Of a stretch of DNA of 64,000 bases, positions 4,200-47,976 are shown piece after piece. The stretch lies in contig CAYFPJ010000002.1 of the NCBI GenBank assembly GCA_964344965.1, forward strand, positions 1,068 through 65,067, read 5' to 3'. The notes beneath the pieces are model-generated. The model was not told where the DNA came from. It ran no database searches and saw nothing but the letters and a program-made list of their open reading frames with translations. The stretch's first letter is position 1, and each line of letters starts with the position of its first letter. The position numbers and the translations under genes were made by a program. The stretch is from an uncultured Gammaproteobacteria bacterium (lineage in GTDB: Bacteria; Patescibacteriota; Patescibacteriia; Magasanikbacterales; UBA922).

Positions 4200-4348
4200 A
4201 ATAAAAGTAAATTTGGTTTAAGTAAGACTTCATCGGGCCATCCCCGCAGCAAGCTGCGGGGTATTGGCAGAAAATCTTATTTCAACCAATGTTAGTTTTC
4301 ACTTTTTCGATGCAAGCATCGAGGAATAAAACCGCTTAAAGATTAAAA
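4200..4348 (+). repeat. 149-nt structured interspersed repeat, copy A
   Basis: Near-identical to the copies at 18577, 20057, 41992 and 47828. Begins AATAAAAGTAAATTTGG and ends CCGCTTAAAGATTAAAA. Contains the hairpins CCCCGCAG-CAAG-CTGCGGGG and CGATG-CAAG-CATCG. Confidence 0.9.
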
Positions 4349-4520
4349 TATTTATTATCCTCCTTTATTTTATAGCCATTGAAATCTAAAAAATGTGGCA
4401 AGGTTTTTTTGGTCTTTATAAATTTCTTTCTAAATTCATTTATATATTCCAAATCAACTCTGTTGACCAGGTCGAATTCTTTTGGATCAATGATGTATTT
4501 TTTTGACATATGATTACCAA

Positions 4521-5918
4521 TTATACTTTGATAACATGCTTTTCAATGAATTTATCAATCCCCAACTCTTCAAATTCTTTGATCGACTTCATAGCTGGAG
4601 ATTCTCGCCTTTCTATTCTATCATATAGGGGCTCTAGATACTCTTCTTCTCCCAAGCCTCGTTGCTCTAAACCTTCTTTGGCAATATCGACAAGTTGGGT
4701 GGCAAGTGGAATGACTTCGTCTACTAATAAACTTTTTTCAATAGTTTTGTCACGAAGATCAATCCAGTATTGCCAGTCTTTTGAAGCGACCAGTGCTTCG
4801 GCCTTTTCAATATTCTCAATAATTCCTAAAACAAGTGCTGGTGCTGACATGATGCTTGACCATGGTTGCGAGGCAATGCAACGTGTTTCAATATATAATT
4901 TAGTCAGATTACCATCCAATAATTGATCTATCGAACCGTCTTCATACGATTTTTTGAATGACTCTAGTGTGATACTTTCATCAAATTCAAATCGGGGACG
5001 AGCCATTGGCCAACCGTACTGGAGTTGATCTGAGACATCAGCAATATTTGGAATAATGGTTGCTCTCTTTGATTCAGCAACATCAAAGCTTATCCATTTT
5101 TGCTTAGAAAAATATTGACCAATATTGTCCAATTCTCTTATGACATGAACATGTTTGCCAGCATCTCTGATAATCATGAAATGAGGCAAAGACCAGTTTC
5201 TCTCTACATATTTTTGTATATTTATAATTGGCTCAGTGGGAATACCGCGCAATCTTTGATGAAATTCATCATAACCGGTTGCCACAAGATTCCATCTATG
5301 TTCACGTTCTTCATGCACATCTAGAATTTGCTCAGATTCTATTGCAGAATTTGCACATATAGATACCATAACTCCAGACAAAGCATTAACCACATTAAAC
5401 ACTTTCATGGCGTCTTCGTAGTGCACATCAATACATACCTGATGAGCGGCAATATTTGAGAAATAATGGTGATACTCGGCCCAAATTTTAGTCCAGTAAA
5501 AACCCCTATACCAAATTTTTTCTGTTTTCAATTCAGGATAATAATATGGAGTCTTTGGTTGGACGCCAAGATCTATGAGGCCAACACTTAGCCCTTTTGC
5601 AACAGAAAGAAAATCCTTTAAGATAACCGCCATGTTTTGTTCACATTCTGAAATGGTGTCAAAGGGTAAAAAACCAAACTCCACTATGTTCACTCCCGTA
5701 TCAGTATTTATAACCACCTCTCTACCATCTTTCTGGGTATACAAAACCCCCACTGGCTGTTTTGTGCCGTAATCTTTGTATAACTTGACATGACTTTCTT
5801 CAGACCATTTTCTCCAGATCGATTTGATCTGGTCGCGATTTGCAGCTTCGCCTGTAGTGACATCAATCGCAAGAAACTCATATTCAAGCGCTATCTTTCT
5901 GTTTTTCATTTTTGTCAT
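4521..5918 (-). CDS. GCS2-family carboxylate-amine ligase (glutamate-cysteine ligase family 2, YbdK-like)
   Basis: N-terminal ALEYEFLAID matches the GCS2 ...ELE.Q..D block, and there is an internal HVHV motif as in YbdK (HVHVG). Confidence 0.6.
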   Translation of the reverse strand: MTKMKNRKIALEYEFLAIDVTTGEAANRDQIKSIWRKWSEESHVKLYKDYGTKQPVGVLYTQKDGREVVINTDTGVNIVEFGFLPFDTISECEQNMAVILKDFLSVAKGLSVGLIDLGVQPKTPYYYPELKTEKIWYRGFYWTKIWAEYHHYFSNIAAHQVCIDVHYEDAMKVFNVVNALSGVMVSICANSAIESEQILDVHEEREHRWNLVATGYDEFHQRLRGIPTEPIINIQKYVERNWSLPHFMIIRDAGKHVHVIRELDNIGQYFSKQKWISFDVAESKRATIIPNIADVSDQLQYGWPMARPRFEFDESITLESFKKSYEDGSIDQLLDGNLTKLYIETRCIASQPWSSIMSAPALVLGIIENIEKAEALVASKDWQYWIDLRDKTIEKSLLVDEVIPLATQLVDIAKEGLEQRGLGEEEYLEPLYDRIERRESPAMKSIKEFEELGIDKFIEKHVIKV

Positions 5919-6135
5919 ATTTCTTTTTTAAATTACCGACCAATTTATCCCTTTTTTGATCGACTAAAAAGTATAAATTTTGTTCCATTTTCATGACATT
6001 TTTAAGATACTCAAAATCAGCAATGGGCAACATCTTGTCTTCGATTGATTTTTTTATAATCATTTTTGCGCTATCTTCAAAAATATGGGTTTCATCCAAT
6101 AAGGTAAAAAATATTTTTGTGTCTTGATATTCCAT
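5884..6135 (-). CDS. small hypothetical protein (83 aa)
   Basis: ORF only; overlaps the start of the ligase gene by 35 nt; no recognisable motif. Confidence 0.2.
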   Translation of the reverse strand: MEYQDTKIFFTLLDETHIFEDSAKMIIKKSIEDKMLPIADFEYLKNVMKMEQNLYFLVDQKRDKLVGNLKKKYDKNEKQKDSA

Positions 6136-6149
6136 ATGTGTTTTTACTG

Positions 6150-7184
6150 TTATATTTCTCTGGTTGCACCCAAACGTTTTCTTTGGCGTCTGGCAGTGAG
6201 TTCAAGTAAGTTCATCCAAATCCTGCGAGCTTCAGCTGTATTACGAAGTAAAATTTCCTTTGGATCCAACCCCTCTTGTTCCATTGCATCTCCTCTAATT
6301 ATTTTAATCACATGCAACCAATGAGCGACAATATCTGGATGATTTTGAAGAGAGACCACCAGCTCATCATCCTGATCAGCTTCTAGCACACCCTGCCCCT
6401 CACGAAGTGGATGGGCATACCCTTGATGAGGAAAATAATCATTCCAAGCCACAACTTGAATATTGTCTTTTGAAGACGGAGTGATAATTCCTTCGCTGTG
6501 ACTGGCACTCATGGGAGTAGAACCACCATCATCCCAAAATCCCTGCAATAATTGAATTTGTTTACCGAGCCCTGCTTCATCTGGATATAAATCAGGTGTT
6601 CCGAATTCCCTAGTACCTCCACCCACCTTACCAAGAGTTGCACCTTCCGAACGCTGAAACAACTGATGACCAAGACATATCGCTAATCCAGGCACTCTAG
6701 CCTGTTTTAATTTATTCATCACCTCTACAACACGTTTCAACCATGGAGTATTTTCGGTCTCATTACCAGGGTCTAGTTCTGACGGCATATATGCTCCTCC
6801 GGTCGTTACCCAGACATCAGGATATGGTAGAGAAGATAGATCTATTTCTTGATTACGAAAAGCTTCCCAAATTTTTACCCTATCATCACCTTTTTCAAAA
6901 CCCATGAAATCCCTAATGGCACTACCATATGTGGTACGATCACTACCAGCAAATTGAAATTCCTTTGCTCTTCTGCTCAATTCCTCATCTCCACCTTTTC
7001 TTGGATCTTGAACTCCTCCTAGATCCATCACAAAGATGTGAGCATCACGTGCTAGCTGATCTGCTACAAATCTTCTTGCTTCTTCTCGATGTCTTTCGAT
7101 TGTTTCAATTTCTGCTGCAAGCTCTGTTTTTTGTTTTTCCCAAAATTCTGAGCTATACCCTTCTGGTTTTTTTATCTCTACCAT
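6150..7184 (-). CDS. class-I glutamine amidotransferase-like / peptidase C26 (gamma-glutamyl hydrolase-type) protein
   Basis: Nucleophile-elbow motif PGLAICLGHQL and a downstream LQNHPD motif (cf. FHPE) of GATase1/C26 enzymes such as PuuD. Confidence 0.6.
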   Translation of the reverse strand: MVEIKKPEGYSSEFWEKQKTELAAEIETIERHREEARRFVADQLARDAHIFVMDLGGVQDPRKGGDEELSRRAKEFQFAGSDRTTYGSAIRDFMGFEKGDDRVKIWEAFRNQEIDLSSLPYPDVWVTTGGAYMPSELDPGNETENTPWLKRVVEVMNKLKQARVPGLAICLGHQLFQRSEGATLGKVGGGTREFGTPDLYPDEAGLGKQIQLLQGFWDDGGSTPMSASHSEGIITPSSKDNIQVVAWNDYFPHQGYAHPLREGQGVLEADQDDELVVSLQNHPDIVAHWLHVIKIIRGDAMEQEGLDPKEILLRNTAEARRIWMNLLELTARRQRKRLGATREI

Positions 7185-7195
7185 ATATCTTTAAA

Positions 7196-7999: not shown

Positions 8000-8074
8000 T
8001 ATATTGTGCGTAATTTTATGTATAAAGTCAAATTACGATTACTAAACATAACTGACTTAGATCATAAAACACAA

Positions 8075-8186: not shown

Positions 8187-8208
8187 ATGATTCAAAGTAA
8201 TTACAAAA

Positions 8209-10164
8209 TCAATTATCAAACCTGACAATCTGATCCTGATCAATTTTCTTAGGCTTGTCCTCACTATCTGCTTTATTCTCTTTTTTAGATCCATTCCCAC
8301 CGCCAGAACCATCTTTGGCAGATCCACCGTTTTTCTTTTTCCTCTTTCTTTTCCTCTTTCGTTTCTTCTTAGGCTTGTCTTCCTTTAATTTTTCTTTCAC
8401 TTCTTCCTTACTTGAGTTTTTGTCTTCGTTATCTTTTATTTCTTCATCCTTTTCTTTTCTTGGCAAAGGTGAAAAGTCTTCTGAATCTTTTAGTTCTTTT
8501 TGCTCTTCATCAAAAAAATCAAGTAGATCCTGATCTTCTTCATCATTAGCTTTTTCTTCATCACTTCCAACCTCATCTTCTTGACCATCTTCTTCATCAA
8601 AAACTTCTGGCAAAGCCTCTCCATCTTTATCTTCGGGAAAATCAAACTTATCATCTGTCGCCAAGTCGTCTTCTTTAGCTTTTTCATTTTTAGGTAACAG
8701 ATCTTCAAGAGAGATATCTTCTTTATCAGATTCTAATTTCTTCTTATCAATCTCTATTTTTTCTTTGTCATCATCTTTTTTATTATCAGTATTTTTTTCT
8801 TTCTTTTTTTCTTTTTCTACTTCTCCACTATCACTACCAGCGATCTCCATCCCACTCCACCTAGTGATCTTCTCTTCGATGATATCACGCGATTTACCAT
8901 ATCTTTCCCGAGATACTCGGATCACTTTGTTAGCGCTCCCAGTAGACGAGCCAAGTGGTGGCATGCCAACCGCGCTGAACGGCTGGGAAGCAACTCCATT
9001 GATCATCAGTTTTAGAAAGATTTGATATTTTGGCAGATTAACAATATGCTCTTCGGTAAAAGTCGGAGCATATTCTTTTGCTAGAGCCTCCGCATCAGCT
9101 GCTCCCACTCGAAAAGTAAGAATACTTCCCACATTGCCAAATACAGCATCAGCTACAGTCTCATCTAGCTGAGCCACGTATTGGTGAGCCATGATCAGAC
9201 CAAGGCGATACTTACGAGCTTCAGACAAAATATTGGCAAAAGACTGAGTAGCAAAATTCTGAAATTCATCTACATAAAGAAAAAAATCATTACGCTCTTC
9301 CTCAGGAATATCTACTCTACTCATAGCGGCCAGTTGGATCTCGGTAATAAGCATTCCCCCGAGAAGACGACTATTGTCCTCCCCAATTCTACCTTTGGAA
9401 AGATTCATGATGAGGATCTTCTTCTGATCCATGATCTCTCGTATATTAATCGTTGATTTCACTTGAGCCACCATATTCCTGATCACACTGGCAGAAAGAA
9501 ACTGACCAATCTTGTTCTGAATTGGAGCGACCGCTTCTTTTTGGTACCTGGGTTCGTAGTTGGCAAATTCTGTAGTCCAAAATGATTTGACGACAGGGTC
9601 TTTCAATTGACGAATAACTTTTCGTCGATATTTCTTATCAGCAAGCATTCTGTTGATCCCAAGTAGTGTAGAGCCTTGAGAATCAAGTAGAGCAAGGAGT
9701 GTATTATTGAGAATGTATTCCATCCTCGCACTCCAGACATCTGGCCAAATCTTCTTGAAGACTCCCATCAGTCCAGAAGCAACAAGATGCTTTTGTTCTT
9801 CAGATTCTACTTCTAGAATATTGAAGCCAATTGGGAACTCTACATCAGCTGGATTGAAGTAAATAACATCATTGGTACGATGAGAAGGAATATAGTCGAT
9901 CAGCTTCTCAGCCATGTCTCCATGAGGATCTACCACTCCGACACCATGACCATTATATATGTCTTGGAGAACCATGTTCTCGAGCATAGTCGTCTTACCC
10001 ATCCCAGTCTTCCCTATCACATACATGTGTCTTCTGCGATCATCTGTCTTGATGCCAAACTTGCGCATCTGATTACGATAATTAGTCTGCGCAAAAAAAC
10101 AGACATGTTGTTTGTCTTCTGTAGATTTTTCTTGTCCCTTTATTTGGAGGTGGTGAGTGGGCAT
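8209..10164 (-). CDS. TraD/VirD4-like P-loop ATPase (T4SS coupling-protein-type AAA-binding domain) with ~230-aa K/E/D-rich low-complexity C-terminal tail
   Basis: Walker A YVIGKTGMGKTT and Walker B FFLYVDEFQNF; overall resembles the TrwB/TraD ATP-binding domain. The tail is poly-charged (KKKRKRKRKRKKK and D/E runs). No other T4SS genes are nearby. Confidence 0.5.
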   Translation of the reverse strand: MPTHHLQIKGQEKSTEDKQHVCFFAQTNYRNQMRKFGIKTDDRRRHMYVIGKTGMGKTTMLENMVLQDIYNGHGVGVVDPHGDMAEKLIDYIPSHRTNDVIYFNPADVEFPIGFNILEVESEEQKHLVASGLMGVFKKIWPDVWSARMEYILNNTLLALLDSQGSTLLGINRMLADKKYRRKVIRQLKDPVVKSFWTTEFANYEPRYQKEAVAPIQNKIGQFLSASVIRNMVAQVKSTINIREIMDQKKILIMNLSKGRIGEDNSRLLGGMLITEIQLAAMSRVDIPEEERNDFFLYVDEFQNFATQSFANILSEARKYRLGLIMAHQYVAQLDETVADAVFGNVGSILTFRVGAADAEALAKEYAPTFTEEHIVNLPKYQIFLKLMINGVASQPFSAVGMPPLGSSTGSANKVIRVSRERYGKSRDIIEEKITRWSGMEIAGSDSGEVEKEKKKEKNTDNKKDDDKEKIEIDKKKLESDKEDISLEDLLPKNEKAKEDDLATDDKFDFPEDKDGEALPEVFDEEDGQEDEVGSDEEKANDEEDQDLLDFFDEEQKELKDSEDFSPLPRKEKDEEIKDNEDKNSSKEEVKEKLKEDKPKKKRKRKRKRKKKNGGSAKDGSGGGNGSKKENKADSEDKPKKIDQDQIVRFDN

Positions 10165-10249: not shown

Positions 10250-10933
10250 TTATGGTTCAAATACTTCCTGTACTGGATATTTGCAAAATCCCTCATGGAT
10301 TCCGTCATTGCCAAATCTTTCCAACCAAGTAGGATTGCTGGAATATTTATACATAAAACTATTTTGCAACGAAGCAACTAACCTGTGTTTGAAAGGATTT
10401 TTCAAAATGTAATTGAAATGTTTCCAGAAGTCAGTAATGTTACGGATGCAGTAATCGTGATATTGGTACCATATTTTTCTGCCTGGTGTTTGGTCTAGTT
10501 TGTTTAACTCACGAGATGAGTCTTTGTGTAGCTTACGAACGAACTCAGTTAGAACATGTTTTTCTTGCTTTGGGACGAAATTCGCTGCGCTCATTTCATC
10601 ATTCCATTCTTTATAGGAAATATTCTCTCGTCTGATAGGAATGACAGATTGAGCCACAGCGAAATCTGTCCCAGTAGGCATATACTTTTTATTAATAGAT
10701 TGCGGCAGTGAAAAAAGTATATGGTAATGATTATCTAATAACACCCATGCATACATTCTGATACTAAACCTTTCAATCGATTGACGAAAAACATTTTGCC
10801 ACAATATCTTTTTATATTCTTTTTCAAAATACTTTTTCCCCTCCCAACACCGCGCCGTCAAAAAATAAGTATGTCCTCCATAAATATGATGCGGTCTATG
10901 TAAATTCCGATTTTGTGTTTGTGACAAGACCAT
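10250..10933 (-). CDS. IS200/IS605-type HUH tyrosine transposase, REP-associated (RAYT-like)
   Basis: HUH motif LLDNHYHILF and a C-terminal YILKNPFKHRLV...YKYSS block (cf. NPVKAGLV...W.YSS of RAYTs). No TnpB partner. Confidence 0.65.
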   Translation of the reverse strand: MVLSQTQNRNLHRPHHIYGGHTYFLTARCWEGKKYFEKEYKKILWQNVFRQSIERFSIRMYAWVLLDNHYHILFSLPQSINKKYMPTGTDFAVAQSVIPIRRENISYKEWNDEMSAANFVPKQEKHVLTEFVRKLHKDSSRELNKLDQTPGRKIWYQYHDYCIRNITDFWKHFNYILKNPFKHRLVASLQNSFMYKYSSNPTWLERFGNDGIHEGFCKYPVQEVFEP

Positions 10934-11671: not shown

Positions 11672-11682
11672 AATTTCTGAAT

Positions 11683-11752
11683 GTAACTCAGGCCTTTAGG
11701 CCTGATAGAACCAATTTTGTTTGATGTAGTCAGGCCTAAAGGCCTGAGTTAC
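11683..11752. promoter_or_regulatory. perfect 23-bp inverted repeat (each arm itself a hairpin) in the divergent MTase/elp3 intergenic region, ending 2 nt before the elp3 ATG
   Basis: GTAACTCAGGCCTTTAGGCCTGA -24 nt- TCAGGCCTAAAGGCCTGAGTTAC. Confidence 0.6.
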
Positions 11753-11754
11753 AT

Positions 11755-17752: not shown

Positions 17753-17787
17753 ACCCCCACCTTCTCGTTTTTAAATCAAAGGTATGA

Positions 17788-17897
17788 ACCCCAGGGCAAG
17801 CCCTGGACCCTTTTTTCCGAGGCAAGCCTCGGGGAACCTGCCTGCCGGCAGGCAGGTTAAACCAACCCCTCGTCCCGTACCGAGGAACGAGGTCGGG
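17788..17897. repeat. cluster of four consecutive GC-rich hairpins (REP-like palindromes)
   Basis: CCAGGG-CAAG-CCCTGG, CCGAGG-CAAG-CCTCGG, CCTGCCTGCC/GGCAGGCAGG and CCTCGT...ACGAGG. The loops match the CAAG loops of the 149-nt repeat. Confidence 0.7.
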
Positions 17898-17972: not shown

Positions 17973-19408
17973 TTAATAAAAATAATTTCTATCTTCTAAC
18001 TCTTCCGGCAAATAATCCTGCTCCACCTCTCCCCCAAAATCTGGATTATACTTATAATCTTTACCATATCCAATTTCCTTCATAAAGTCAGTCGGAGCAT
18101 TCCGGAGATGTAAAGGTACACCAAGATGTGAAGTATTCTTAGCATCTCTGGCCGCCCGACCATAAGCTTTGTAAAGTAAGTTTGATTTGGTCGACTTAGC
18201 ACAGTATACCACAGCCTGAGCAAGGTGGACGGTGCACTCAGGCATGCCGATCTTGTGCACTGCATCATACGCTGCGTTAGCTTGAATCATTGCTTCACTA
18301 TTGGCCATGCCGATATCTTCACAAGCGAAGCGAAGCACTCGTCTAGCCACATATAGCGGATCTGCTCCCCCTTCAAGCATCCGAGCAAGCCAATACAGCG
18401 AAGCATCTGCATCACTTCCCCGCATAGATTTATGCAAAGCTGAGATCAGATTGTAAAACTCCTCACCTTTTTTATCAAAAACTAAGTGAGTACGCTGTAA
18501 TGCTTCTTTTATATCGTCAACTGACAAGATAACGCCACCAGATTCACCCCCCCCCTATGAGGGGGAGTCGATCCCGAATAAAAGTAAATTTGGTTTAAGT
18601 AAGACTTCATCGGGCCATCCCCGCAGCAAGCTGCGGGGTATTGGCAGAAAATCTTATTTCAACCAATGTTAGTTTTCACTTTTTCGATGCAAGCATCGAG
18701 GAATAGAACCGCTTTAGATTCAATCGGGACGGAGGGGGTCTCACTGGAAGTCTTCCCAACTACGGCAAGTTCAATACCATTCAAAGCTACTCTCCCATCT
18801 TCCCCACTCAAACTTGCCAAAAATTCGATAGTCTCATTATCAATCTCGACATTATATTTCCCCAATCCTCTATCCTCATCCTCGAGAGCTTGTCTTATAA
18901 GCAGGACAATATCCTCATCACTAAGACTTTTCAAAATAAAAACTCGTGAACGTGAGAGAAGTGGACGGATGATTTCAAAAGAAGGATTTTCCGTAGTGGC
19001 TCCGATGAGTGTAACCACTCCTCTCTCAACATAAGGCAGTAATGCATCTTGCTGGGCCTTATTCCAACGATGAATCTCATCAATAAAAAGCACTGTCTTC
19101 TTATTTTCATTCTGTAACAATTCTGAAGCTTCCTTGACTGCTTTCATCAAATCTCGCTTACCGCTCTCTACTCCTGACAAAGAGACAAACTCTGAATTAG
19201 TTTGCTCAGCTATAATATTGGCGAGACTAGTCTTTCCTACCCCAGGCGGACCCCAAAAAATGATCGAAGATAATTGATCTTGCTCGACCATGCGTCTGAG
19301 TAATTTGCCTTTCCCAACAATTTCTTCTTGACCTACAAATTCATCAAAATTGCGAGGACGCATGCGGTCTGGGAGTGGTCTATTATTCTGTGGCTTTTTT
19401 TCTTTCAT
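17973..19408 (-). pseudogene. rarA: rarA/mgsA (recombination factor AAA+ ATPase) split into two ORFs (18659..19408 and 17973..18527) by an inserted copy of the 149-nt repeat
   Basis: The N-terminal ORF has the Walker A GPPGVGKTSLA and ends with repeat-encoded LDACIEKVKTNIG*. The C-terminal ORF starts at a TTG with ...FDKKGEEFYNLISALHKSMRGS..., which continues the RarA alignment with no residues missing. Confidence 0.7.
18577..18724 (+). repeat. 149-nt structured repeat, copy B (inside rarA)
   Basis: Identical over ~130 nt to the other copies, with a diverged 3' end. It is preceded by an extra C9-TATGA-G6 hairpin. Confidence 0.9.
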
Positions 19409-19418: not shown

Positions 19419-20090
19419 TTATCCTTCAGATTTATCTCTCAAATATCCTTCTATAATGGTGTCAGCTTTGGAGAGATTTATTGCTACCAAAACACGAGGA
19501 GGAGTATTGGATTCTAAATAAATCTGCTCTTCCAATGGAATTTTGTGTCCTTCACCTCCCATCAATCTCTCTTGAGCTTCCTTCAAAATTCTAGACATCG
19601 TTATATAAGTTATACCAGCGTATCTAGAACGGATATATTTAGGGCGAACAAAATTTTTATTATTAATCAAAAGACCAAGAATCGTCATCCGTGCAAGCGC
19701 ATCTTCTGCTAAATCTGGACTAAGATATACCTCTCTCCTCAATCTTTCTTTTGTATTGAACTTTTGTGTAAAATGTCTTGAACCATAATTCCGCTGATCT
19801 CCCTCGGGCTTACTTTTGTTACTTTCTTTCATTCTTGATACATTCTCTGCAATTTTCCTTTTATCTAGACCTGTTTTTCTCTGTATGGTTGTCAGAGACA
19901 AGCCATATCTTCCGTCTTCTGGGGGGTATAATCTTCCATCCTCACCTTCCACAGCTCCCAAAAAAATCAAAAATTGTTTTCGATCTTCTTGAATACGACT
20001 CTCAATCATTTCCAAAACCTTAGGACTATATTTGGCATCATATCTTCTATGAGGAAAATAAAAGTAAATTTGGTTTAAGTAAGACTTCAT
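19419..20090 (-). CDS. hypothetical protein with a possible HTH; the annotated start (MKSYLNQIYFY) is encoded by the repeat, and the true start is probably near 20009
   Basis: The first 11 codons lie inside repeat copy C. The segment LSLTTIQRKTGLDKRKIAENVSRM is HTH-like. Confidence 0.35.
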   Translation of the reverse strand: MKSYLNQIYFYFPHRRYDAKYSPKVLEMIESRIQEDRKQFLIFLGAVEGEDGRLYPPEDGRYGLSLTTIQRKTGLDKRKIAENVSRMKESNKSKPEGDQRNYGSRHFTQKFNTKERLRREVYLSPDLAEDALARMTILGLLINNKNFVRPKYIRSRYAGITYITMSRILKEAQERLMGGEGHKIPLEEQIYLESNTPPRVLVAINLSKADTIIEGYLRDKSEG

Positions 20091-20206
20091 CGGGCCATCC
20101 CCGCAGCAAGCTGCGGGGTATTGGCAGAAAATCTTATTTCAACCAATGTTAGTTTTCACTTTTTCGATGCAAGCATCGAGGAATAAAACCGCTTAAAGAT
20201 TTAAAA
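20057..20206 (+). repeat. 149-nt structured repeat, copy C (150 nt)
   Basis: Matches the other copies. It supplies the last 19 codons (TFKSLSGFIPRCLHRKSEN*) of the upstream ORF. Confidence 0.9.
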
Positions 20207-21429
20207 GTAAGATCCTCATCATTACTCACTCTCCCAACAACTTCCTCTATAAGGGTAGCATAAGGTTGGCCATACTTTAATTTAACATAATTATGCAACT
20301 TCATTTCCGTAAACCATTCATCATCTTTTTGTTTTATTTCCAAAAGTAATTCGACCACTTCTACACTATACAGCATCAAACTACGACCTCCAAGGTATGA
20401 TCCTGGTCGTTTAATCTGCTCATCTCTCATCCCCTCATCTCTAAGTCTATCCACCACACCAAGAAGAGAACTATTTATCCAATATTTAGATTTACCAACA
20501 ACAGCAGCAAGAGATCTATTCTTATCACCATCAATATCACCAATAATATACCAACCACCACCTGGACGCTCCATATTTTTAACAAGTTCAACTTCTGCAG
20601 GAACATCATTAAGTATTCTTTCGATTTCAGCCAGCCAGTCTTCCATGTTTGAAAAAGGAATTATTTCATGAGGATGTGGATATGTTTCAAATGAACGCAT
20701 AGTATACTTATCTGGAGTTTGACCTAGAAAATTCTCTATATCTTCCTCTTCAGTACCTGGATTGACAAAAACAATGTGAGTACCCTCACCGTGTAAATCA
20801 GAGACGAAAATTGACACTCCTTTGTCAGGGATAACAAACAAATCATACAAACCATCATAATCACGCACAGTTGATTCAATTTGTTTTTTTGCTCCACTTG
20901 ATAAATCTTCTTTTGATTTTGTTTTTGCACGCACAGAGACAACACCTAATCTTGTCAATAAAATATCAAGTGCTTCTTTTCTCTTATGAGTTTTCCTTTT
21001 CTTTTCCCTATCTTTCTCTCCTCCTTTACCAATTCCAAGTCTTCCTTCTCCAGTGCTAAGTAAAGGCCTGTCAATATATATTGTGTTCACGGCCCCAGTC
21101 ACAACTTCTCCCTCTGGATCAGTCAATTCTACTTCGTCAGAAGTAGAATTGAAAACTAAAGGAAATTCCTCTGCTAGACTTCTCGCCCGCTTTTCTAGGA
21201 TGCTTTCTATACTATTCATATCCTCAGGAGGAATGCCTAAGATGTCTGCAATATCACCTCTATTAAGTCCAGACTCTGTCAAAGCTTCTAATTCACTTGC
21301 AAGACATCCTCTCCAATATTCTACAGCTGAGATGGGAGCAGTCTCAAGACCAGCTTGCTTACCAGCATGTTCACGTAACTTCTTCACCATTATACGGTCA
21401 GCATGAGGTTCAAGATATTTTTTTGACAT
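20149..21429 (-). CDS. hypothetical protein, paralog of the 14019..15260 ORF; its C-terminal 19 aa are read from the repeat
   Basis: Shares the FVSDL-containing block with its paralog; no family assignment. Confidence 0.4.
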   Translation of the reverse strand: MSKKYLEPHADRIMVKKLREHAGKQAGLETAPISAVEYWRGCLASELEALTESGLNRGDIADILGIPPEDMNSIESILEKRARSLAEEFPLVFNSTSDEVELTDPEGEVVTGAVNTIYIDRPLLSTGEGRLGIGKGGEKDREKKRKTHKRKEALDILLTRLGVVSVRAKTKSKEDLSSGAKKQIESTVRDYDGLYDLFVIPDKGVSIFVSDLHGEGTHIVFVNPGTEEEDIENFLGQTPDKYTMRSFETYPHPHEIIPFSNMEDWLAEIERILNDVPAEVELVKNMERPGGGWYIIGDIDGDKNRSLAAVVGKSKYWINSSLLGVVDRLRDEGMRDEQIKRPGSYLGGRSLMLYSVEVVELLLEIKQKDDEWFTEMKLHNYVKLKYGQPYATLIEEVVGRVSNDEDLTFKSLSGFIPRCLHRKSEN

Positions 21430-23736: not shown

Positions 23737-23761
23737 AAATATTAGATTAGAGTTTTCCTTA

Positions 23762-23893
23762 CTCTCTCGCAACCCACCACCTGTCCTCCTCCCTTAAAAA
23801 GGGAGGAGGGACGTACTAATAAGTTTGACCTATGCAGCACGTTCTCCCTCCCTTTCTAAGGGAGGGAGACAGAGGGTGGGTTGCGTGGTGAGA
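23762..23893. other. GC-rich multi-stem structured element in the convergent glyA/murG spacer
   Basis: Outer 10-bp stem GCAACCCACC/GGTGGGTTGC encloses two hairpins, CCTCCTCCC-TTAAAAA-GGGAGGAGG and CTCCCTCCC-TTTCTAA-GGGAGGGAG. Confidence 0.6.
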
Positions 23894-28651: not shown

Positions 28652-28656
28652 AAGTT

Positions 28657-28696
28657 ATGTGCGAAATTACGAAAGCTGCGAAATGTACGAAAAAAA
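28657..28696 (-). repeat. TTTCGTA-type tandem repeat array (4 units) ending 5 nt before the helicase-nuclease ATG
   Basis: The minus strand reads TTTCGTACA TTTCGCAGC TTTCGTAA TTTCGCACAT AACTT ATG. Confidence 0.7.
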
Positions 28697-28760
28697 CTTA
28701 ATCTATTCTATATAATCCTAGCACAATTATGTTGCCTTAACAATTCCAACAACAAACAAA

Positions 28761-28796
28761 TTTCGTAACTTTCGTACTGTTCGTAATTTCGCACAT
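28761..28796 (+). repeat. TTTCGTA-type tandem repeat array (4 units), upstream of the hup promoter
   Basis: TTTCGTAAC TTTCGTACTG TTCGTAA TTTCGCACAT. Confidence 0.7.
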
Positions 28797-28828
28797 AAAT
28801 CATCCTGTGGACAAATATTTTGGCTCTA

Positions 28829-39014: not shown

Positions 39015-40577
39015 TTATAATGGATGTAAACTGTTATTTTTACCAAGCAATGTTGGATATTTTATATTTTCAGTACCCGCTTTTATAGATCCTTTAGATT
39101 TCAACTTCATGCCAATGGCTGAAGAGCCATAAATTACAAATTTTTTATGAAAATTATTCGAAGAAAATACTTTTCCACCTATATTTCCAGAAATTGCATA
39201 AAACAAGTCATCAATGTATTGGTAATATATTTGATTTTTGTTTGGATGCTTTACAACAGAACCTCGAGGATACTGATAGCCGGCACTGCTAAAAATTTCT
39301 AAACCAGAAAGAAGGTTCCCGGATAGTGCATCCGCCAAATCACTAAAGCCATTGCCAGTAGTGTCTTTTATATCCGGATCTGTAAACCAATAAAAAATTT
39401 CCTCATGGTCAGTAAGGCCATCACCATCAGAATCGTGTTTCAAATCACTTGTGCCATATTCCTTTTCTGTTTCACTGTCTACTCCATCGTGATCCTTGTC
39501 GACAATATCTTTATCTCCCACATCATAGCTTCTAATCTGATAAAAGCTACTCTGTGATGATTCCAAAGTGATTACTCTTTTGTCCCAATTGTTACCATAT
39601 AGGAGCTTAGCTTCTACCTCTGAACGGATTGGTCGCAATTGACATCCCGGCTCTGGTGCATATACTTTTGGAGAATGGTCAAAACTTACCAACCAAGTCC
39701 CAGCCCTAACACAAATAGGCTTCCCAACCAAATATTGACTAATCTTCGGATTACTAACATAAAAGATATTAGAAATGCTATCATACCAAGAATGCAAAAC
39801 TGCCGGATGAGAAAAGGGATGAATATAACCATCAAATCCCAAATAATATATTGGAGTGTTCTTACCCTTTATCAAGCTACCTTCTGGAATATAAGTAGGA
39901 GATTGATTATATTGAATTGTCTTGCTAATTATTTTTGTTTTGCCATCAGCATCTTTGAATTGCATGTAAACTTTTTTCTGTCCACTACCGGCAGAAAGCA
40001 TCCAAGATATTTTCTTGGTGATAGGCATAAAATCAAATAAAGAAAAATCCTCTTGGTTGCTCACAAATATTGACTCGACACTTTTTGAAAAACTGATATC
40101 AAGAGAAACAGAACGAGAATCTGTCTCCTCATCACCATCATTGATAATAAAATTAACTTCCATGTTTTCTGGTACAGACAAGGTGATGGTATCCTTGTAT
40201 ATTTTTTCTTCGTCAGCATCACCTCCTTTAAACTTAATATAAACAGTTTTTGTACCCTTGCCATAATCCAGATACCATTTTTTTGTTTTAGCATAAGATT
40301 CCCAGTCTATATTATCAAAATCAAGTTTATTAGAAATTTTCATTTTCTTGGTACCATCTGGGGCAGAAATATAGAGAGTCACCTTACGGACAGAAGTTTC
40401 AGATTTATTTTTATTTATATTAAAATAAATATCTGAGGAAGCACTTTGAACTGTCTCAAAAAATACAAGCAATACTACCAACAAACAGAGAGTAGCCAAG
40501 AGAATAATGTGGTGTTGATTTTTTAGCCTAAATAACATATAATCTCGATAGAAGTATACTAAAAAATTGGCCCTCAT
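39015..40577 (-). CDS. secreted or membrane-anchored hypothetical protein with calcium-binding DxDxDG (TSP3-like) motifs
   Basis: N-terminal TM segment and DKDHDGVDSE...DSDGDGLTDHEE. Its start overlaps the divergent gene's start, so one of the two starts is probably miscalled. Confidence 0.4.
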   Translation of the reverse strand: MRANFLVYFYRDYMLFRLKNQHHIILLATLCLLVVLLVFFETVQSASSDIYFNINKNKSETSVRKVTLYISAPDGTKKMKISNKLDFDNIDWESYAKTKKWYLDYGKGTKTVYIKFKGGDADEEKIYKDTITLSVPENMEVNFIINDGDEETDSRSVSLDISFSKSVESIFVSNQEDFSLFDFMPITKKISWMLSAGSGQKKVYMQFKDADGKTKIISKTIQYNQSPTYIPEGSLIKGKNTPIYYLGFDGYIHPFSHPAVLHSWYDSISNIFYVSNPKISQYLVGKPICVRAGTWLVSFDHSPKVYAPEPGCQLRPIRSEVEAKLLYGNNWDKRVITLESSQSSFYQIRSYDVGDKDIVDKDHDGVDSETEKEYGTSDLKHDSDGDGLTDHEEIFYWFTDPDIKDTTGNGFSDLADALSGNLLSGLEIFSSAGYQYPRGSVVKHPNKNQIYYQYIDDLFYAISGNIGGKVFSSNNFHKKFVIYGSSAIGMKLKSKGSIKAGTENIKYPTLLGKNNSLHPL

Positions 40578-41967
40578 GCAATTATTTTATAGGATTAGAC
40601 AGTTAATTCTACTAGCTGGAGACATGATTGTCTTCATTTTTGCGTTTTGGATCAGTCTGGCAGTAAGGTATTTCCAAATTCCAGCTTGGGAAATTGTTTT
40701 GCAAAATATAGTGGTATTACCCGTCCTCTTACTGATTTGGATAGTTTTAAACTATATAAATGGTCTTTACGACTTAGTCAAATATAGCGATATTAAAAAT
40801 TTTTCAAAAAGAATACTGGAAACATCTGTTGTTTCTCTGGTTGTCAGCATTATATTATTTTATATCATTCCCCAAAAAGATCTCACACCAAAAACAATTC
40901 TGGTGCTGGCTGTATTTTTTGGTTACAGTTTTGCATTTTTGTGGAGGCTATTATACAGTCAAATCATTGGCAACAAGGGACTGAAAGAGAAAATACTATT
41001 TGTTGGACATAGTAAAGAAATGGATGAGCTGGTGGATATAATTACCAAACTCCCTCAAAGAGGTTATGAAGTGTGTGTTTGGGTGGATCCAGAAAAAAAC
41101 ATAAAAAAAGAAAAGTGTGAAAAAATTGAAGTATATGAAAGATTACAGACCATAAGACCCGCCATAACCAACCATCATATTAGTACTATAGTGATTGCCC
41201 CTCACTTGCGGTACGAAGAGAAAGTACTTCGAGAATTATATGAATTGTTATTTTGGGATGTACGAATTATGGACATGGCCTCATTTTATGAAGCAATCAC
41301 TGGTCGTATTCCTCCTTCTACTTTTTCAGAAGGGTGGTTTTTGGATCATATTGGTAATAATGATTTACCAGTCTATCAAAAAATAAGAGTAGTCTTAGAC
41401 TATATAACTGCTATAATGCTTGGTCTTTTGTTTTTAATTCTTTTTCCTCTAATTACTCTTGGAATCAAGGCCACTTCCAGAGGCCCAATATTTTTTAAAC
41501 AAAGAAGAGTAGGAAAATATGGCGAGCATTTTCTGTTGTACAAATTCCGTTCCATGTACTCCTTGGCAGAAGATGGCAGTGCTGAAACAGAAGGTGCTCA
41601 ATTTGCCAAAAAAAACGATAAGCGAGTTACTCCTTTTGGAAAATTCTTAAGAAAAACTAGACTGGACGAACTACCACAATTCATAAACATACTCAAGAGA
41701 GATATCACTCTCATTGGACCACGTCCAGAAAGACCAGAAATAGTGCAACAATTGGAAGAAAAAATGCCTTATTATTCACTACGTCACATCATTGAGCCTG
41801 GTTTGACTAGCTGGGCAGTACTTCACCAAAACTATACTGATACACTGGAAACTTCTTTGCAAAAGCTGCAGTACGATTTATATTATATAAAAAATAGGTC
41901 ATTTTTGCTTGACCTATCTATCTTGCTCAAAACTATCAACCTGGTCGTCAGGGGGATGGGTCAATGA
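40567..41967 (+). CDS. polyprenyl-phosphate hexose-1-phosphate transferase (WbaP/CpsE-like bacterial sugar transferase)
   Basis: N-terminal TM segments, then a C-terminal PF02397-type domain (RGPIFFKQRRVGKYGEHFLLYKFRSM...DELPQFINILKRDITLIGPRP). Confidence 0.85.
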   Translation: MALMQLFYRIRQLILLAGDMIVFIFAFWISLAVRYFQIPAWEIVLQNIVVLPVLLLIWIVLNYINGLYDLVKYSDIKNFSKRILETSVVSLVVSIILFYIIPQKDLTPKTILVLAVFFGYSFAFLWRLLYSQIIGNKGLKEKILFVGHSKEMDELVDIITKLPQRGYEVCVWVDPEKNIKKEKCEKIEVYERLQTIRPAITNHHISTIVIAPHLRYEEKVLRELYELLFWDVRIMDMASFYEAITGRIPPSTFSEGWFLDHIGNNDLPVYQKIRVVLDYITAIMLGLLFLILFPLITLGIKATSRGPIFFKQRRVGKYGEHFLLYKFRSMYSLAEDGSAETEGAQFAKKNDKRVTPFGKFLRKTRLDELPQFINILKRDITLIGPRPERPEIVQQLEEKMPYYSLRHIIEPGLTSWAVLHQNYTDTLETSLQKLQYDLYYIKNRSFLLDLSILLKTINLVVRGMGQ

Positions 41968-41991
41968 CGATAGTTACAAATTACTAGTTAA

Positions 41992-42140
41992 AATAAAAGT
42001 AAATTTGGTTTAAGTAAGACTTCATCGGGCCATCCCCGCAGCAAGCTGCGGGGTATTGGCAGAAAATCTTATTTCAACCAATGTTAGTTTTCACTTTTTC
42101 GATGCAAGCATCGAGGAATAAAACCGCTTAAAGATTAAAA
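41992..42140 (+). repeat. 149-nt structured repeat, copy D
   Basis: Full-length match to the other copies; lies between convergent genes. Confidence 0.9.
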
Positions 42141-42230: not shown

Positions 42231-43166
42231 TTAGTCTATTCCCCATTCTTTTTTCAACTCTTTAATCCCATCTTCTAGCGTGATTGTAGGCTCCCATCCG
42301 AGGAGTTCTTTTGCTTTTGTGATATTGGCTTCTGTATATCGGACATCCCCTGGTCTCTCATCAACATTTACAAAGTCTCCACCAATCATTTTCACAATGT
42401 CATTTACTGAGTTAGGATTGTTGTTGCCAATATTGATAGTCTCACCTTTACCGACACTACTCTTTGTCATGGCAAGGATATTGGCACGCACTACATCTGA
42501 AACATGGGTATAGTCACGATAATACTCTCCGTCACCACAGACGGTCATCGACTCGCCATTCTTGACTTGCTGTAAAAACTTAGCAATAACAAGAGCATAA
42601 GCACCATTGGGGTCTGCGTATGGTCCATAGACATTAAAGTACACTAATGACACTGTCTCTAGTCCATACAAATCTGCAAACTGACGACAATAGTGCTCAC
42701 CAATCAATTTATGTAAAGCATAAGGAGCAATCGGTAGTTTGTTAATTTTGTCTTCTACTAGTGGATAAGCCTCTCTAGGCTGATCGCCATAAGTAGATGA
42801 GGAGGATGAAAAAACAACTCGCTTCACACCAGCATCTCTAGCAGCAAGAAGGACATTCAAAGTACCGTTGACATTGGTGTTATGAGTTTCTTGAGGATGC
42901 TCAACAGAATATGTCACTCTAGGAAGGGCAGCCATGTGAAATACTCCATCGACTCCTTCCATAGAAGGAAGCAATATATCCATATCTCGAATATCCCCTT
43001 CAATATATTCCACACCGTCCTGGATTCTTTCTTCTTTTTTGCCACCAGCGTAGTTGTCTATCACTTTTACATCGTGACCTTCTGCCAGAAGTTGTTTGGC
43101 CAAATTTGTACCGATGAAGCCAGCGCCGCCGGTTATTAAATATTTCATAAATACTACAATGTCCAA
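42231..43166 (-). CDS. UDP-sugar 4-epimerase of the GalE/WbpP family (likely start at 43148, MKYLITGG...)
   Basis: ITGGAGFIGTNL and the YxxxK core. Overlaps the dehydrogenase gene by 13 nt, suggesting an operon. Confidence 0.75.
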   Translation of the reverse strand: MDIVVFMKYLITGGAGFIGTNLAKQLLAEGHDVKVIDNYAGGKKEERIQDGVEYIEGDIRDMDILLPSMEGVDGVFHMAALPRVTYSVEHPQETHNTNVNGTLNVLLAARDAGVKRVVFSSSSSTYGDQPREAYPLVEDKINKLPIAPYALHKLIGEHYCRQFADLYGLETVSLVYFNVYGPYADPNGAYALVIAKFLQQVKNGESMTVCGDGEYYRDYTHVSDVVRANILAMTKSSVGKGETINIGNNNPNSVNDIVKMIGGDFVNVDERPGDVRYTEANITKAKELLGWEPTITLEDGIKELKKEWGID

Positions 43167-44458: not shown

Positions 44459-44464
44459 AGAAAA

Positions 44465-45298
44465 TCAAAAAATCATCAATATAACCCCAATGACAAGTAA
44501 TAATAAAAAAATAATTTTTGTGAGTATGGTTCTTTCTTTAAAGTAGACATAACCTGACAAAAGTGACCATGATATACTAAAAGATCTCTTGGCAGCAATA
44601 ATTACTGAAGCTGGGGCAAACAAAAAAGCAAAACTAGCAAATACAGTAGAAAGACCACTACTTAAAGACTGGAAAAAAAAGATTGGTTTTTTCAAGAATA
44701 CAAACGGATTTTCCTTCTTTCTAACCATAGCCATAATAAAAAAGTAAATTAATAGAACAAAAATTGTAATAGACTGTTCAGCTTCCACAGAATTGAAGTA
44801 GGTTATATTATACTTAAACAAGGAGAGAGTTGCAACAGCATTGACGGCAGTAAAAAGTACTAGCCATCTCCCTTTTTTCTTCATCTTATTGTTTAGAAAT
44901 ATCAAAATAACAACAATAAATATCAAACTAATGCCAATAAACTGAAAAGTACTAATACTATACCCCAAAACAACATCTACAAAAAGTAGTAGTGGAATGG
45001 TCAGAGTCCTGATAAAGCTGAAAGTGGTCCTGTCTGCTGTCACTATGGCCCAAATAGTCACATGGGCCTGGAGGACCTCTAGGAATAACTTGGGTACAAA
45101 AGTGGGTAGAGAAGAGACAGAAAATAAAAATTCTCCTCTAAAAAAAGAAATCAACAGAAAGAAAAGAAAGGAGAAAAAAAAGATCAAAAAACCCATAGTG
45201 TAGAGGCTCTCCTCTTTAGCCTCTACTTTCTTTTTTCCCAAACTATCAGAAAACTCCTGAAAAAAAGTGCCTACAAATGTAAGGAATATTCCAAACAT
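44465..45298 (-). CDS. polytopic integral membrane protein of unknown function
   Basis: ~9 predicted TM segments; no family motif. Confidence 0.4.
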   Translation of the reverse strand: MFGIFLTFVGTFFQEFSDSLGKKKVEAKEESLYTMGFLIFFFSFLFFLLISFFRGEFLFSVSSLPTFVPKLFLEVLQAHVTIWAIVTADRTTFSFIRTLTIPLLLFVDVVLGYSISTFQFIGISLIFIVVILIFLNNKMKKKGRWLVLFTAVNAVATLSLFKYNITYFNSVEAEQSITIFVLLIYFFIMAMVRKKENPFVFLKKPIFFFQSLSSGLSTVFASFAFLFAPASVIIAAKRSFSISWSLLSGYVYFKERTILTKIIFLLLLVIGVILMIF

Positions 45299-45305
45299 AA
45301 ATATC

Positions 45306-45442
45306 TAACGAGTAGTGTGAATTAATTTTCACAATTGGCTGAATTGAACTATTTTTGAAGCGAGGACTGTTTGAGCGAAGCGAGTTTCGCAGCGAAAAAA
45401 TAGCTCAATTCAGACAAAAAAATTAATTCACACTACTCGTTA
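45306..45442. repeat. 137-nt element with perfect 24-bp terminal inverted repeats (MITE-like long hairpin)
   Basis: TAACGAGTAGTGTGAATTAATTTT...AAAATTAATTCACACTACTCGTTA. A nested second inverted repeat and GCGAAG/GCGAAA repeats lie inside. Confidence 0.8.
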
Positions 45443-45443
45443 T

Positions 45444-46835: not shown

Positions 46836-46838
46836 AAT

Positions 46839-46875
46839 TATGTACGAAATACGAAAAATTCGAAAATTACGAAAA
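46839..46875 (-). repeat. TTTCGTA-type tandem repeat array (4 units) ending 4 nt before the ugd ATG
   Basis: The minus strand reads TTTTCGTAA TTTTCGAAT TTTTCGTA TTTCGTACAT AATT ATG. Confidence 0.7.
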
Positions 46876-47118
46876 TGGATGAATTAACATTTTTCTTTAA
46901 AAAAAGCTATAGTAGTGTAGCATAAATTGGTGTTTTTTTCAATACTTGTACTTTTGAACAAATTTGCCTAAGTATAAGAAAAAAATGGCAAAAATAAATA
47001 TTTTAATCATACACAAATTCTCTCTCCAAAAATACAAAAACATATCCACAGCTTAATATGGTGTATATTGAAAAATCTGCTAAACTTATCATATCTAAAT
47101 TGTTAATAATAAAATTAT

Positions 47119-47259
47119 ATGACTACCGAACGTGAAGAGAAACAATGTCCAATTTGTGGAGCTCCAGAAAGAGGCTGCAATTGCATAAAAGAAATTGAAA
47201 AAAAGGCTTTGATGCAAATTTGGTCATTGGTGAAATCCCAAATCATGAAAAACTAGCCA
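47119..47259 (+). CDS. possible small zinc-ribbon-like ORF (46 aa)
   Basis: MTTEREEKQCPICGAPERGCNCIKEIEKK... Absent from the track because it is under 60 aa. Overlaps the next ORF in another frame. Confidence 0.2.
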
Positions 47260-47849
47260 CACAAATTGCTACTTTCATGGATACTGATGCCACTGAACCA
47301 AGTGAGGGTAATATCAGAGAAGGATGGACCTCTGACGCACATTTGCGCAAATTAGAAAGTGTAGTAATGCACGAAAACCACCAAAACCAGACTTTTGCTG
47401 ATATTGCAGAAAATGCTGGAGAAAGAAGTAAAAGCCCTGCTGTAAAAATTCTTCTGAAAATAGGCGGACAAATTAACGGATTGAGGCGCATGACCGATAA
47501 AGAACCGATCAAAGACGAAGTTGACAAACTAATCAGAGAGGCCGCAGAGGAAATTGATCAGCTGGAGGATGGAACTAAAAAAGAACGCCTAGACTCACTG
47601 TTGGATTATAATGCTGGTGAGTGGAATAGAGTTATGGGAAATTATGACCTGGCTGCTGAATTGAAAAAACGCTCTGCAACCAAAGCCGAGACAAGCGGGG
47701 ATAGAGTAGGTGCCTCTATCGGGTATGTCGGTGAAAGTGTTCAGAAAGTGAATGAAGCTTTGGTAAATGGTGACCAAACAGAAATAGCTGCGAATCTAGA
47801 AGAAATGATTAGTCGTTCTGATCATCTAATAAAAGTAAATTTGGTTTAA
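47220..47849 (+). CDS. hypothetical protein (TTG start in the track; the last 6 codons, IKVNLV*, come from the repeat)
   Basis: ORF with higher GC than its neighbours; no motif. Confidence 0.35.
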   Translation: MVIGEIPNHEKLATQIATFMDTDATEPSEGNIREGWTSDAHLRKLESVVMHENHQNQTFADIAENAGERSKSPAVKILLKIGGQINGLRRMTDKEPIKDEVDKLIREAAEEIDQLEDGTKKERLDSLLDYNAGEWNRVMGNYDLAAELKKRSATKAETSGDRVGASIGYVGESVQKVNEALVNGDQTEIAANLEEMISRSDHLIKVNLV

Positions 47850-47976
47850 GTAAGACTTCATCGGGCCATCCCCGCAGCAAGCTGCGGGGTATTGGCAGAA
47901 AATCTTATTTCAACCAATGTTAGTTTTCACTTTTTCGATGCAAGCATCGAGGAATAAAACCGCTTAAAGATTAAAA
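47828..47976 (+). repeat. 149-nt structured repeat, copy E
   Basis: Full-length match; separates two GC-richer ORFs. Confidence 0.9.

Follow-up and report, generated by a model that had tools for sequence, protein, structure and literature searches.

Five near-identical copies of a short repeat, A to E, start at positions 4200, 18577, 20057, 41992 and 47828 of the 64,000-nt stretch of contig CAYFPJ010000002.1 analysed here (the window). The repeat is very probably a transposase-less derivative of an insertion sequence of the IS200/IS605 family, more precisely of its TnpA-only IS200 group, and is best classed as a homogeneous palindrome-associated transposable element (PATE). The case, as read from sequence, is built on homology of the ends to tnpA-bearing elements, on covariation between guides and cleavage sites, on a target hexamer, on the lack of target-site duplications and terminal inverted repeats, and on strand bias; movement of these copies by the "peel and paste" route, and the enzyme responsible, we can only infer. 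Elements of this kind are already known, and the current understanding of the family is unchanged. What is new is the subfamily (GCTTGC-apex hairpins and TT-N-A-N-T sites), its presence in a probable candidate phyla radiation (CPR) genome, and a displaced right-end site. A recently active IS200/IS605-derived mini-element is documented in a small, gene-dense genome that probably belongs to the Patescibacteria.

The repeat and its ends

The first-pass annotation of the window had described a 149-nt repeat in five co-oriented, near-identical copies. This was confirmed by an alignment of the copies with 30-nt flanks, in which about 145 consecutive columns are invariant and the flanks are unrelated, and by an independent repeat scan, which returned the same five-member family as the sole long repeat family of the window. 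All five are co-oriented on the plus strand of the window and agree fully across ~129 nt, and the differences among them amount to 2-3 changes in copy B, near its left end. The 20-nt hairpin, sought with up to three mismatches, occurs at five sites in the window, all of them in the copies (chance expectation 0). The copies lie within about 79 kb of contiguous sequence, with none found from window position 52055 to about 13.6 kb beyond the right window end. The density had been called far higher than typical loads of repetitive extragenic palindromes (REPs) or MITEs (miniature transposable elements with inverted repeats). This is overstated, the REP density of E. coli being comparable to one copy per ~13 kb.

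Every copy carries the hairpins CCCCGCAG-CAAG-CTGCGGGG and (T)CGATG-CAAG-CATCG(A), as had been noticed; a supposed further hairpin, ATTGG...CCAAT, turned out to be a component of a weaker extended stem. The two GCAAGC-apex hairpins stand on the same strand in direct orientation. On the minus strand, the left end reads TT[T/A/G]AAT / CTTTAAGCGGTTT-TATT-CC-[TCGATGCTTGCATCGA], followed by a spacer, and the right end …CCAATA-[CCCCGCAGCTTGCTGCGGGG]-36 nt-TTTATT / (here and below, a slash between spaces marks a boundary; those of the element are accurate to ~1 nt). In copy A, the left hairpin is preceded by CC and by the 4-nt guide TATT (4325-4328), its stem beginning 20 nt from the cleavage site, and the guide AATA (4262-4265) lies directly 5' of the right hairpin. 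The absence of target-site duplications and of inverted termini was upheld: none were found at the five copies, whose flanks share only TTNAAT, on one side. The weak TTTAAG noted earlier is not a terminal repeat; what is conserved beside that end is this flanking target hexamer, on the minus strand. It precedes all five copies in the form TT[T/A/G]AAT, and its variable base differs between otherwise identical copies, here and in other genomes.

The right end is unusual in that 42 nt separate the hairpin foot from the end of the element, compared to 9 nt in most relatives. A long imperfect stem can form by pairing of the additional 33 nt with the spacer that lies 5' of the guide. It is present in the RNA fold and in the DNA centroid and absent from the DNA minimum-energy structure; such an extended stem may bring the displaced hexamer back to the guide. 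Displaced right ends were also seen in L049 (two copies, with different flanks after …GGATTTATT) and L137 (L numbers denote fetched loci). Since two other subtypes share the design, it seems to be tolerated.

A sixth, diverged single-copy relative accounts for the palindrome cluster at 17788-17897, in which the same hairpin style had previously been recognized. The cluster carries two GCAAGC-apex hairpins and family-like ends, reading on the minus strand as flanking TTTAAT, two extra hairpins, GTTCCCCGAGGCTTGCCTCGG, and then CCAGGGCTTGCCCTGG-GGTTCATA. Its guides obey the family rule (see below) only in part, and the element has therefore probably decayed.

Insertion sequences with the same ends

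A 26-mer around hairpin 1 matched 19 genome loci in unrelated phyla, mostly in high-GC genomes, including Competibacter/Contendobacter, Acetobacteraceae and an Acidoferrales metagenome-assembled genome. At these loci, it belongs to two-hairpin repeats of 85-105 nt that have the ends of the window element, AATAAA-NNN-[CCCCGCAGCAAGCTGCGGGG]-TATTGG…[CGCAGCAAGCTGCG]GGGAAT…AGAGATTNAA, that is, the same layout with shorter spacers and a compensated second stem. The 20-nt hairpin CCCCGCAGCAAGCTGCGGGG matched at least 120 metagenome loci, on contigs ranging in GC content from 32 to 64%. From subfamily to subfamily, the stem of hairpin 2 varies by compensated changes (CGCAGC, CGAAGC, CGCCCC, CGCCGC, CGATGC), and the GCTTGC apex is constant.

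The link to transposition genes comes from 12 metagenome loci in which an IS200-type tnpA adjoins the hairpin; without exception, the CTTG loop is on the sense strand of tnpA. At nine of these loci, the hairpin follows the stop codon by 3-40 nt and is itself followed by NNN-TTCATT and then by unrelated DNA, as expected of a right end; in the other three, it precedes the start codon by ~100 nt, as a left end. All five of the tnpA proteins tested gave full-length matches to Pfam Y1_Tnp (E 1e-28 to 1e-43). These autonomous relatives are TnpA-only elements of 560-700 bp. Two of them, L131 and L051, have the left end TTCAAT / C.CTGGGGGTCA-GATT-CCCCGAAGCTTGC…, which matches the left ends of both the short elements and the window element. 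An annotated "IS200/IS605 family transposase" on the Synechocystis sp. B12 plasmid CP101711.1 likewise has the same hairpin at both ends: TTGATC / -15 nt-CATA-[hairpin] on the left and GATA-[hairpin]-TCTTTCATT on the right. The hexamer of this copy, TTGAT(C), resembles the ISDra2 target, TTGAT. Since its ends are shared with tnpA-bearing elements, the 149-mer can be understood as an IS200/IS605-family element reduced to its two ends, with no gene between them.

Further reduced forms exist. One-hairpin, "terminal-only" elements of ~60 nt were found on five metagenome contigs (L052, L056, L062, L118, L141). They have the structure TTNAAT / CTCT..GGGTC-NATT-[hairpin]-NNN-TTNAAT, in which one hairpin with one guide acts for the left and the right end alike, each of the two hexamers fitting the guide. 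L145 (452-700) holds a decayed copy with tnpA truncated after ~20 codons. The hairpin family with its GCTTGC apex is thus common to insertion sequences and mini-elements across several phyla. The 20-mer also occurs in five IMG/VR viral contigs (L156-L160), and such viruses may be a vehicle for spread between phyla; a 23-mer specific to the window subtype had no match among the viral contigs. Literature searches for the hairpin sequence and for the project accession PRJEB17505 returned nothing.

Three other readings of sequences beside the hairpin were considered and set aside. The ATG directly after the hairpin is not a gene start, as it opens reading frames of only 3-53 codons and the real tnpA starts ~100 nt further on. 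What resembles a CRISPR array in L085 is the left-end region, duplicated in tandem where the contig ends. As to a TnpB and omega-RNA arrangement, no TnpB-like open reading frame (ORF) was present among those scanned with Pfam. As a separate observation, L113 (1-700) contains two tandem insertion sequence copies of ~560 bp, in which the right hexamer of the first, TTCATT, is the target of the second.

Guides, cleavage sites and strand

At right ends, the relation between guide and cleavage site can be written as a rule: the guide 5' of the hairpin is N1-A-T-N4, the terminus T-T-M3-A-M5-T. Of 72 unique contexts, 57 show Watson-Crick pairing of N1 with M3 and 61 that of N4 with M5; G at N1 goes with C at M3 in 43 of 43 cases, and A at N1 is the only partner seen for T at M3. 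At left ends, the hexamer belongs to the flanking DNA, and its position 3 pairs with guide position 1 in 25 of 37 cases, its position 5 with guide position 4 in 31 of 37. By label permutation (100,000 permutations), one of the four comparisons gave p = 4e-4 and the other three gave p below 1e-5, values that are optimistic because the sequences are related and were selected on an exact hairpin 1. Typical left ends in the family have a spacing of 19 nt, typical right ends one of 9 nt. In the window element, the right guide, AATA, predicts the observed TTTATT exactly. At the left end, position 5 of the hexamer fits the guide in 5/5 copies and position 3 in 1/5, plus one G·T wobble. A guide/cleavage rule of this type (N-A-T-N with TT-N-A-N-T), recovered from sequence alone, could be used to predict target specificity for each subfamily.

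Nearly all genes in the window are on the minus strand, and the GC skew of the plus strand is negative throughout, which makes the minus strand the G-rich "leading" strand and, physically, the presumed lagging-strand template. In all six elements (the five copies and the diverged relative), the top strand is on this G-rich, gene-rich strand, the predicted lagging-strand template, although the sample is small and the direction of replication follows from skew only. Members of the IS200/IS605 family have been reported to insert with their active strand on the lagging-strand template (PMC5027513).

Proposed mechanism and known systems

How might such an element move? A Y1 HUH transposase supplied in trans would bind both hairpins in single-stranded DNA, and the four bases 5' of each hairpin would pair with the cleavage hexamers and so position them. 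This peel-and-paste route would leave no target duplication and would not require inverted termini. The single-strand circle junction between right and left ends is predicted to read …CTTTTATT / CTTTAAGCGG… (also written …ACTTTTATT / CTTTAAGCGG…), and the empty site in rarA, the gene interrupted by copy B, …CCCGATTGAAT / CGGGATCGAC…. A cognate IS200-type tnpA, if there is one in the genome, would be expected between CTTTAAGCGGTTTTATTCC… and …CTTTTATT.

The models for this mechanism are IS608 of Helicobacter pylori and ISDra2 of Deinococcus radiodurans. In IS608, TnpA binds subterminal hairpins, and the cleavage sites are paired by 4 nt located 5' of the hairpin foot, the left site being flanking target DNA 19 nt upstream and the right site lying inside the element, 10 nt downstream (PMC3201880). 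The family described here shares with IS608 and ISDra2 the subterminal hairpins at both ends and the 4-nt guides (PMC3201880, PMC5027513), the left site in flanking DNA 19 nt upstream, the internal right site 9-10 nt downstream, the lack of target-site duplication, and the active strand on the lagging-strand template. Unlike them, the window element has neither transposase nor tnpB, and its hairpin sequence is its own, with a conserved GCTTGC apex. Compared to IS608, the site is a hexamer with two covarying positions rather than a tetranucleotide, its cleavage position being defined here to ~1 nt.

PATEs were defined in Haloquadratum walsbyi as elements of non-coding length without inverted termini or target duplication and with near-terminal palindromes (PMC3119063). 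The window element agrees in each respect: it has no inverted terminal repeats, its palindromes are near-terminal, it makes no target duplication, and it is too short to encode a transposase. Further likenesses are the "homogeneous" expansion at more than 95% identity, the distance from start to palindrome, which in the hairpin family is greater on the 5' side than on the 3' side, and the existence of terminal-only versions with one hairpin. On the other hand, the relatives here are bacterial, TnpA-only IS200-group elements, whereas those of the haloarchaea are rich in IS1341/TnpB, and the host is probably a member of the Patescibacteria/CPR. The window subtype also differs by its 33-nt insertion, which puts 36 nt between the hairpin and the 3' terminal hexamer. 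Classical MITEs with terminal inverted repeats, such as Correia elements and Rickettsia palindromic elements, are similarly small, highly identical and multi-copy, with insertions at gene ends and occasionally within genes, but the window element lacks both their terminal inverted repeats and their target-site duplication.

The mobilizing enzyme and alternative explanations

Several observations weigh against derivation from an IS200-type insertion sequence. A canonical tnpA was sought in the 64-kb window and in the adjoining sequence (1.1 kb on the left, 10 kb on the right), and since these ~75 kb hold none, a cognate enzyme in this genome is unproven. The left guide, TATT, predicts TTAAAT, yet the hexamer is TTTAAT at three of the five copies and TTGAAT at one. 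From the foot of the right hairpin to the terminal hexamer there are 36 nt, as opposed to the usual ~3 nt, and the long imperfect stem that might compensate for this is marginal with DNA parameters. Besides the optimistic p-values, there is the precision of the boundaries, which is only ~1 nt, and the fact that in-silico excision of copy B alone leaves the rarA frame off. Nevertheless, the mobilizer is most likely a canonical TnpA that is encoded elsewhere in the genome or has since been lost.

The first-pass annotation had looked instead to a gene at 10250-10933, which it took to encode an HUH transposase resembling those of IS200 or the REP-associated tyrosine transposases (RAYTs). The product is indeed a Y1 HUH protein of the RAYT type, with a score of 78.1 bits for NCBIfam REP_Tyr_transpos (cut-off 80) and an alignment to E. 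coli TnpA-REP (PDB 4ER8) that covers the HUH and YIxxNP motifs, and the gene is the sole Y1 gene seen in ~75 kb. The near-identity of the copies implies that an active enzyme existed recently, and REPs, too, use a 4-nt guide 5' of the hairpin (PMC6006769), so the repeats might be REP-like units, or units like bacterial interspersed mosaic elements (BIMEs), mobilized by this resident protein in a REPtron-type partnership. This is unlikely. The gene is not flanked by GCAAGC-apex hairpins: there are none within 6 kb of it, the nearest being 6-7 kb away. Its homologues bear names such as Candidatus Magasanikbacteria and Patescibacteria group. Three of their loci (L150-L152) keep the neighbourhood of the window, with the Y1 gene adjoining ELP3-like radical-SAM and methyltransferase genes, and two of these (L151, L152) additionally carry rarA and QueH; it is from these names and the shared gene order that the host is judged to be probably a CPR/Patescibacteria bacterium. 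In ~93 kb around the homologues at six loci (L150-L155), no hairpin element was found, and a tblastn search of the protein against the first 25 fetched loci gave no match. Given this conserved neighbourhood and the lack of hairpin elements in the relatives, the RAYT-like gene behaves as a vertically inherited host gene, which favours a canonical TnpA as the mobilizer. The proposed REP/BIME identity fails as well, since the ends of the element are the left and right ends of IS200/IS605 insertion sequences whose enzyme is a canonical TnpA rather than a RAYT, and the guide is of the form NATN rather than of the GT[AG]G type. REPs, BIMEs and REPINs with their RAYTs (PMC6006769, PMC8266576) do resemble the present family in having hairpins with a 5' guide tetranucleotide, many and mostly intergenic copies, and a related Y1 HUH enzyme. 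They differ from the window element in that its two hairpins are direct, not inverted, and in its defined left and right ends, its conserved flanking target and its tnpA-carrying relatives. Several RAYT subclasses are without associated REPs (PMC6006769). It is similarly improbable that the host lacks a canonical IS200 TnpA and that the vertically inherited RAYT-like protein mobilizes IS200-type PATEs. If this were the case, a domesticated REP-type enzyme would move elements with ends from true insertion sequences, and a right-end cleavage site ~40 nt from the hairpin would be workable by way of the extended stem. What stands of the earlier view is a mobile, hairpin-bearing, strand-biased element from the world of HUH/Y1 single-strand transposases.

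There are two other explanations. The repeats could be structured non-coding RNA genes or cis-regulatory RNA modules, with the hairpins selected as RNA, and indeed either strand gives a strong RNA fold (z = -5.3 and -4.3), both loops on the gene-sense strand are CUUG tetraloops closed by G-C, and stem changes across the hairpin family are compensatory. This is very unlikely, considering that the insertion contexts are heterogeneous (inside rarA, at the 3' ends of ORFs on either strand, between convergent genes), that transposase genes are flanked by the same ends, and that the conserved target hexamer in flanking DNA covaries with the internal guides, which an RNA gene would not explain. Nor does any Rfam family match the element, at the gathering threshold or with E up to 10, where the best hit was RT-14 on one copy (E = 1.5); over the whole window, Rfam 15 gave only two tRNAs at the gathering score. 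The structure can be explained without a discrete RNA function, and secondary RNA effects of IS200-type ends would be a by-product. Least probable of all is that the copies are an assembly artefact, either a collapsed or mis-joined repeat or a chimeric contig. Short-read assemblies break at every copy, which means that the long contig had to bridge the repeats and that single joins could be wrong. However, the sequences on either side of each copy are unique, no join shows a change in GC skew or gene strand, and the rarA-QueH-ELP3-methyltransferase-RAYT gene content matches that of relatives. Moreover, short-read contigs from the same organism (PRJEB17505) begin or end 124-126 nt inside the element, and one, recovered independently, covers exactly the interval between copies A and B and has a partial element at each end. 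Such contigs ending inside the element show that the repeat is truly multi-copy and not the product of collapse, and the element in turn explains why the short-read assemblies of this organism are fragmented at these sites.

Insertion sites

The positions of the copies and of related features are collected in Table 1. The stop codons reported for the plus strand are present in all three frames; for the reverse strand, "at least two" frames had been given, and the number is three. With stops in all six frames, the element cannot be read through as an in-frame insert. The coding effects noted at first pass were reproduced. Copy A sits between two ATP-grasp/GCS2-like genes, both on the minus strand. 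Copy C furnishes ORF 20149-21429 with its final ~18 codons and its stop (…KSLSGFIPRCLHRKSEN, then stop) and ORF 19419-20090 with a spurious MKSYLNQIYFY start. Copy D lies between a sugar transferase gene (40567-41967, plus strand) and an epimerase gene (42231-43166, minus strand), and copy E contributes the last six codons (IKVNLV and stop) of the ORF that it terminates. The element thus explains the split rarA, the odd C-termini of two ORFs and one false start, and the copies are best masked in annotation as mobile DNA, not as genes or RNAs.

The interrupted gene encodes RarA/MgsA, as judged by Pfam, with the N-terminal AAA+ part in 18659-19408, the MgsA_C part in 17973-18527, and copy B between them. 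Intact RarA proteins of relatives have 448 or 506 aa and a hypervariable linker at the point where copy B is inserted. In-silico removal of the 141-nt copy rejoins …ETPSVPIE / SGSTPPHRGG…, the continuation of a motif also present in the 506-aa relative (ETPSQPLQSGG…). The reading frame nonetheless remains shifted by one, at a run of nine Gs (18547-18555, G on the minus strand); with ten Gs, a complete 431-aa protein results. The run has the same length in the independent megahit contig L026. rarA may carry two lesions, the homopolymer length may be in error, or the boundary may be off by one base on one side. The flanks of copy B were also considered as an older, nested element, which was rejected since they encode the ETPSxPxxS linker shared with the relative's RarA. 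Among the relatives, L152 (75-1595) differs from L151 (224-1570) by an in-frame, low-complexity insertion of ~58 aa in the same linker, which in this lineage is a hot spot for changes in length.

Table 1. Location of the element copies, their sequence features and associated genes in the window
Feature	Position	Strand	Remarks
Copy A	4200-4341	-	142-nt non-autonomous IS200/IS605-type element; active "top" strand is the window minus strand
Copy B	18577-18717	-	141 nt, 2-3 left-end differences; within variable linker of rarA/mgsA
Copy C	20057-20198	-	3' end of one ORF, start of another
Copy D	41992-42133	-	Between convergent genes
Copy E	47828-47969	-	At 3' end of plus-strand ORF 47220-47849
Left cleavage/flanking target hexamer, copy A	4342-4347	-	TTTAAT, directly 5' of left end
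Flanking hexamer, copy B	18718-18723	-	TTGAAT, 5' of left end
Flanking hexamer, copy C	20199-20204	-	TTAAAT, 5' of left end
Flanking hexamers, copies D and E	42134-42139; 47970-47975	-	Both TTTAAT, 5' of left end
Left-end hairpin and guide, copy A	4307-4328	-	Hairpin TCGATGCTTGCATCGA at 4307-4322
Right-end hairpin and guide, copy A	4242-4265	-	Hairpin CCCCGCAGCTTGCTGCGGGG at 4242-4261
Right-end terminal hexamer, copy A	4200-4205	-	TTTATT, as predicted by the AATA guide
Sixth, diverged single-copy relative	17783-17897	-	Same orientation as the copies
RAYT-like Y1 HUH protein gene	10250-10933	-	HYH motif; YILKNP tyrosine motif; candidate, unsupported mobilizer
Disrupted rarA/mgsA	17973-19408	-	Split by copy B

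Other palindromes and neighbouring genes

A 72-nt palindrome with perfect arms (11682-11753) lies in the divergent intergenic region between the methyltransferase and ELP3-like genes, 750 nt upstream of the RAYT-like gene. It consists of two inverted TCAGGCC-TTTA-GGCCTGA hairpins with outer arms ATGTAAC/GTTACAT and has the appearance of a REPIN-type doublet. The window has only this copy, and relatives lack it in the corresponding spacer. Directly downstream of the RAYT-like gene, on the same strand, is a gene (8209-10164) for a 651-aa TrwB/TraG-like coupling protein or HerA-type ATPase, a pairing that is not conserved in the relatives' loci. In one relative, a second Y1_Tnp protein of 185 aa is encoded on a 1.05-Mb contig (L154, 13291-13848), 2.7 kb from the RAYT-like homologue; neither of these two Y1 genes is accompanied by GCAAGC-apex hairpins.

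Two further kinds of inverted repeat were seen in the window. A 43-nt inverted pair at 28650-28803 (81% complementary, 68 nt apart, rich in CGAAA/TTTCG) is located just upstream of a UvrD/PD-(D/E)XK helicase-nuclease gene (25679-28651, minus strand). Polypyrimidine/polypurine hairpins, exemplified by CCTCCTCCCTT-AAA-AAGGGAGGAGG and TCTCCCTCCCTT-TCT-AAGGGAGGGAGA, form a family with members at 552-574, 659-681, 1737-1759 and 23760-23890. The last of these comprises two such hairpins inside an outer inverted repeat, CGCAACCCACC…GGTGGGTTGCG, and the hairpin at 1737-1759 falls inside ORF 1086-2102.

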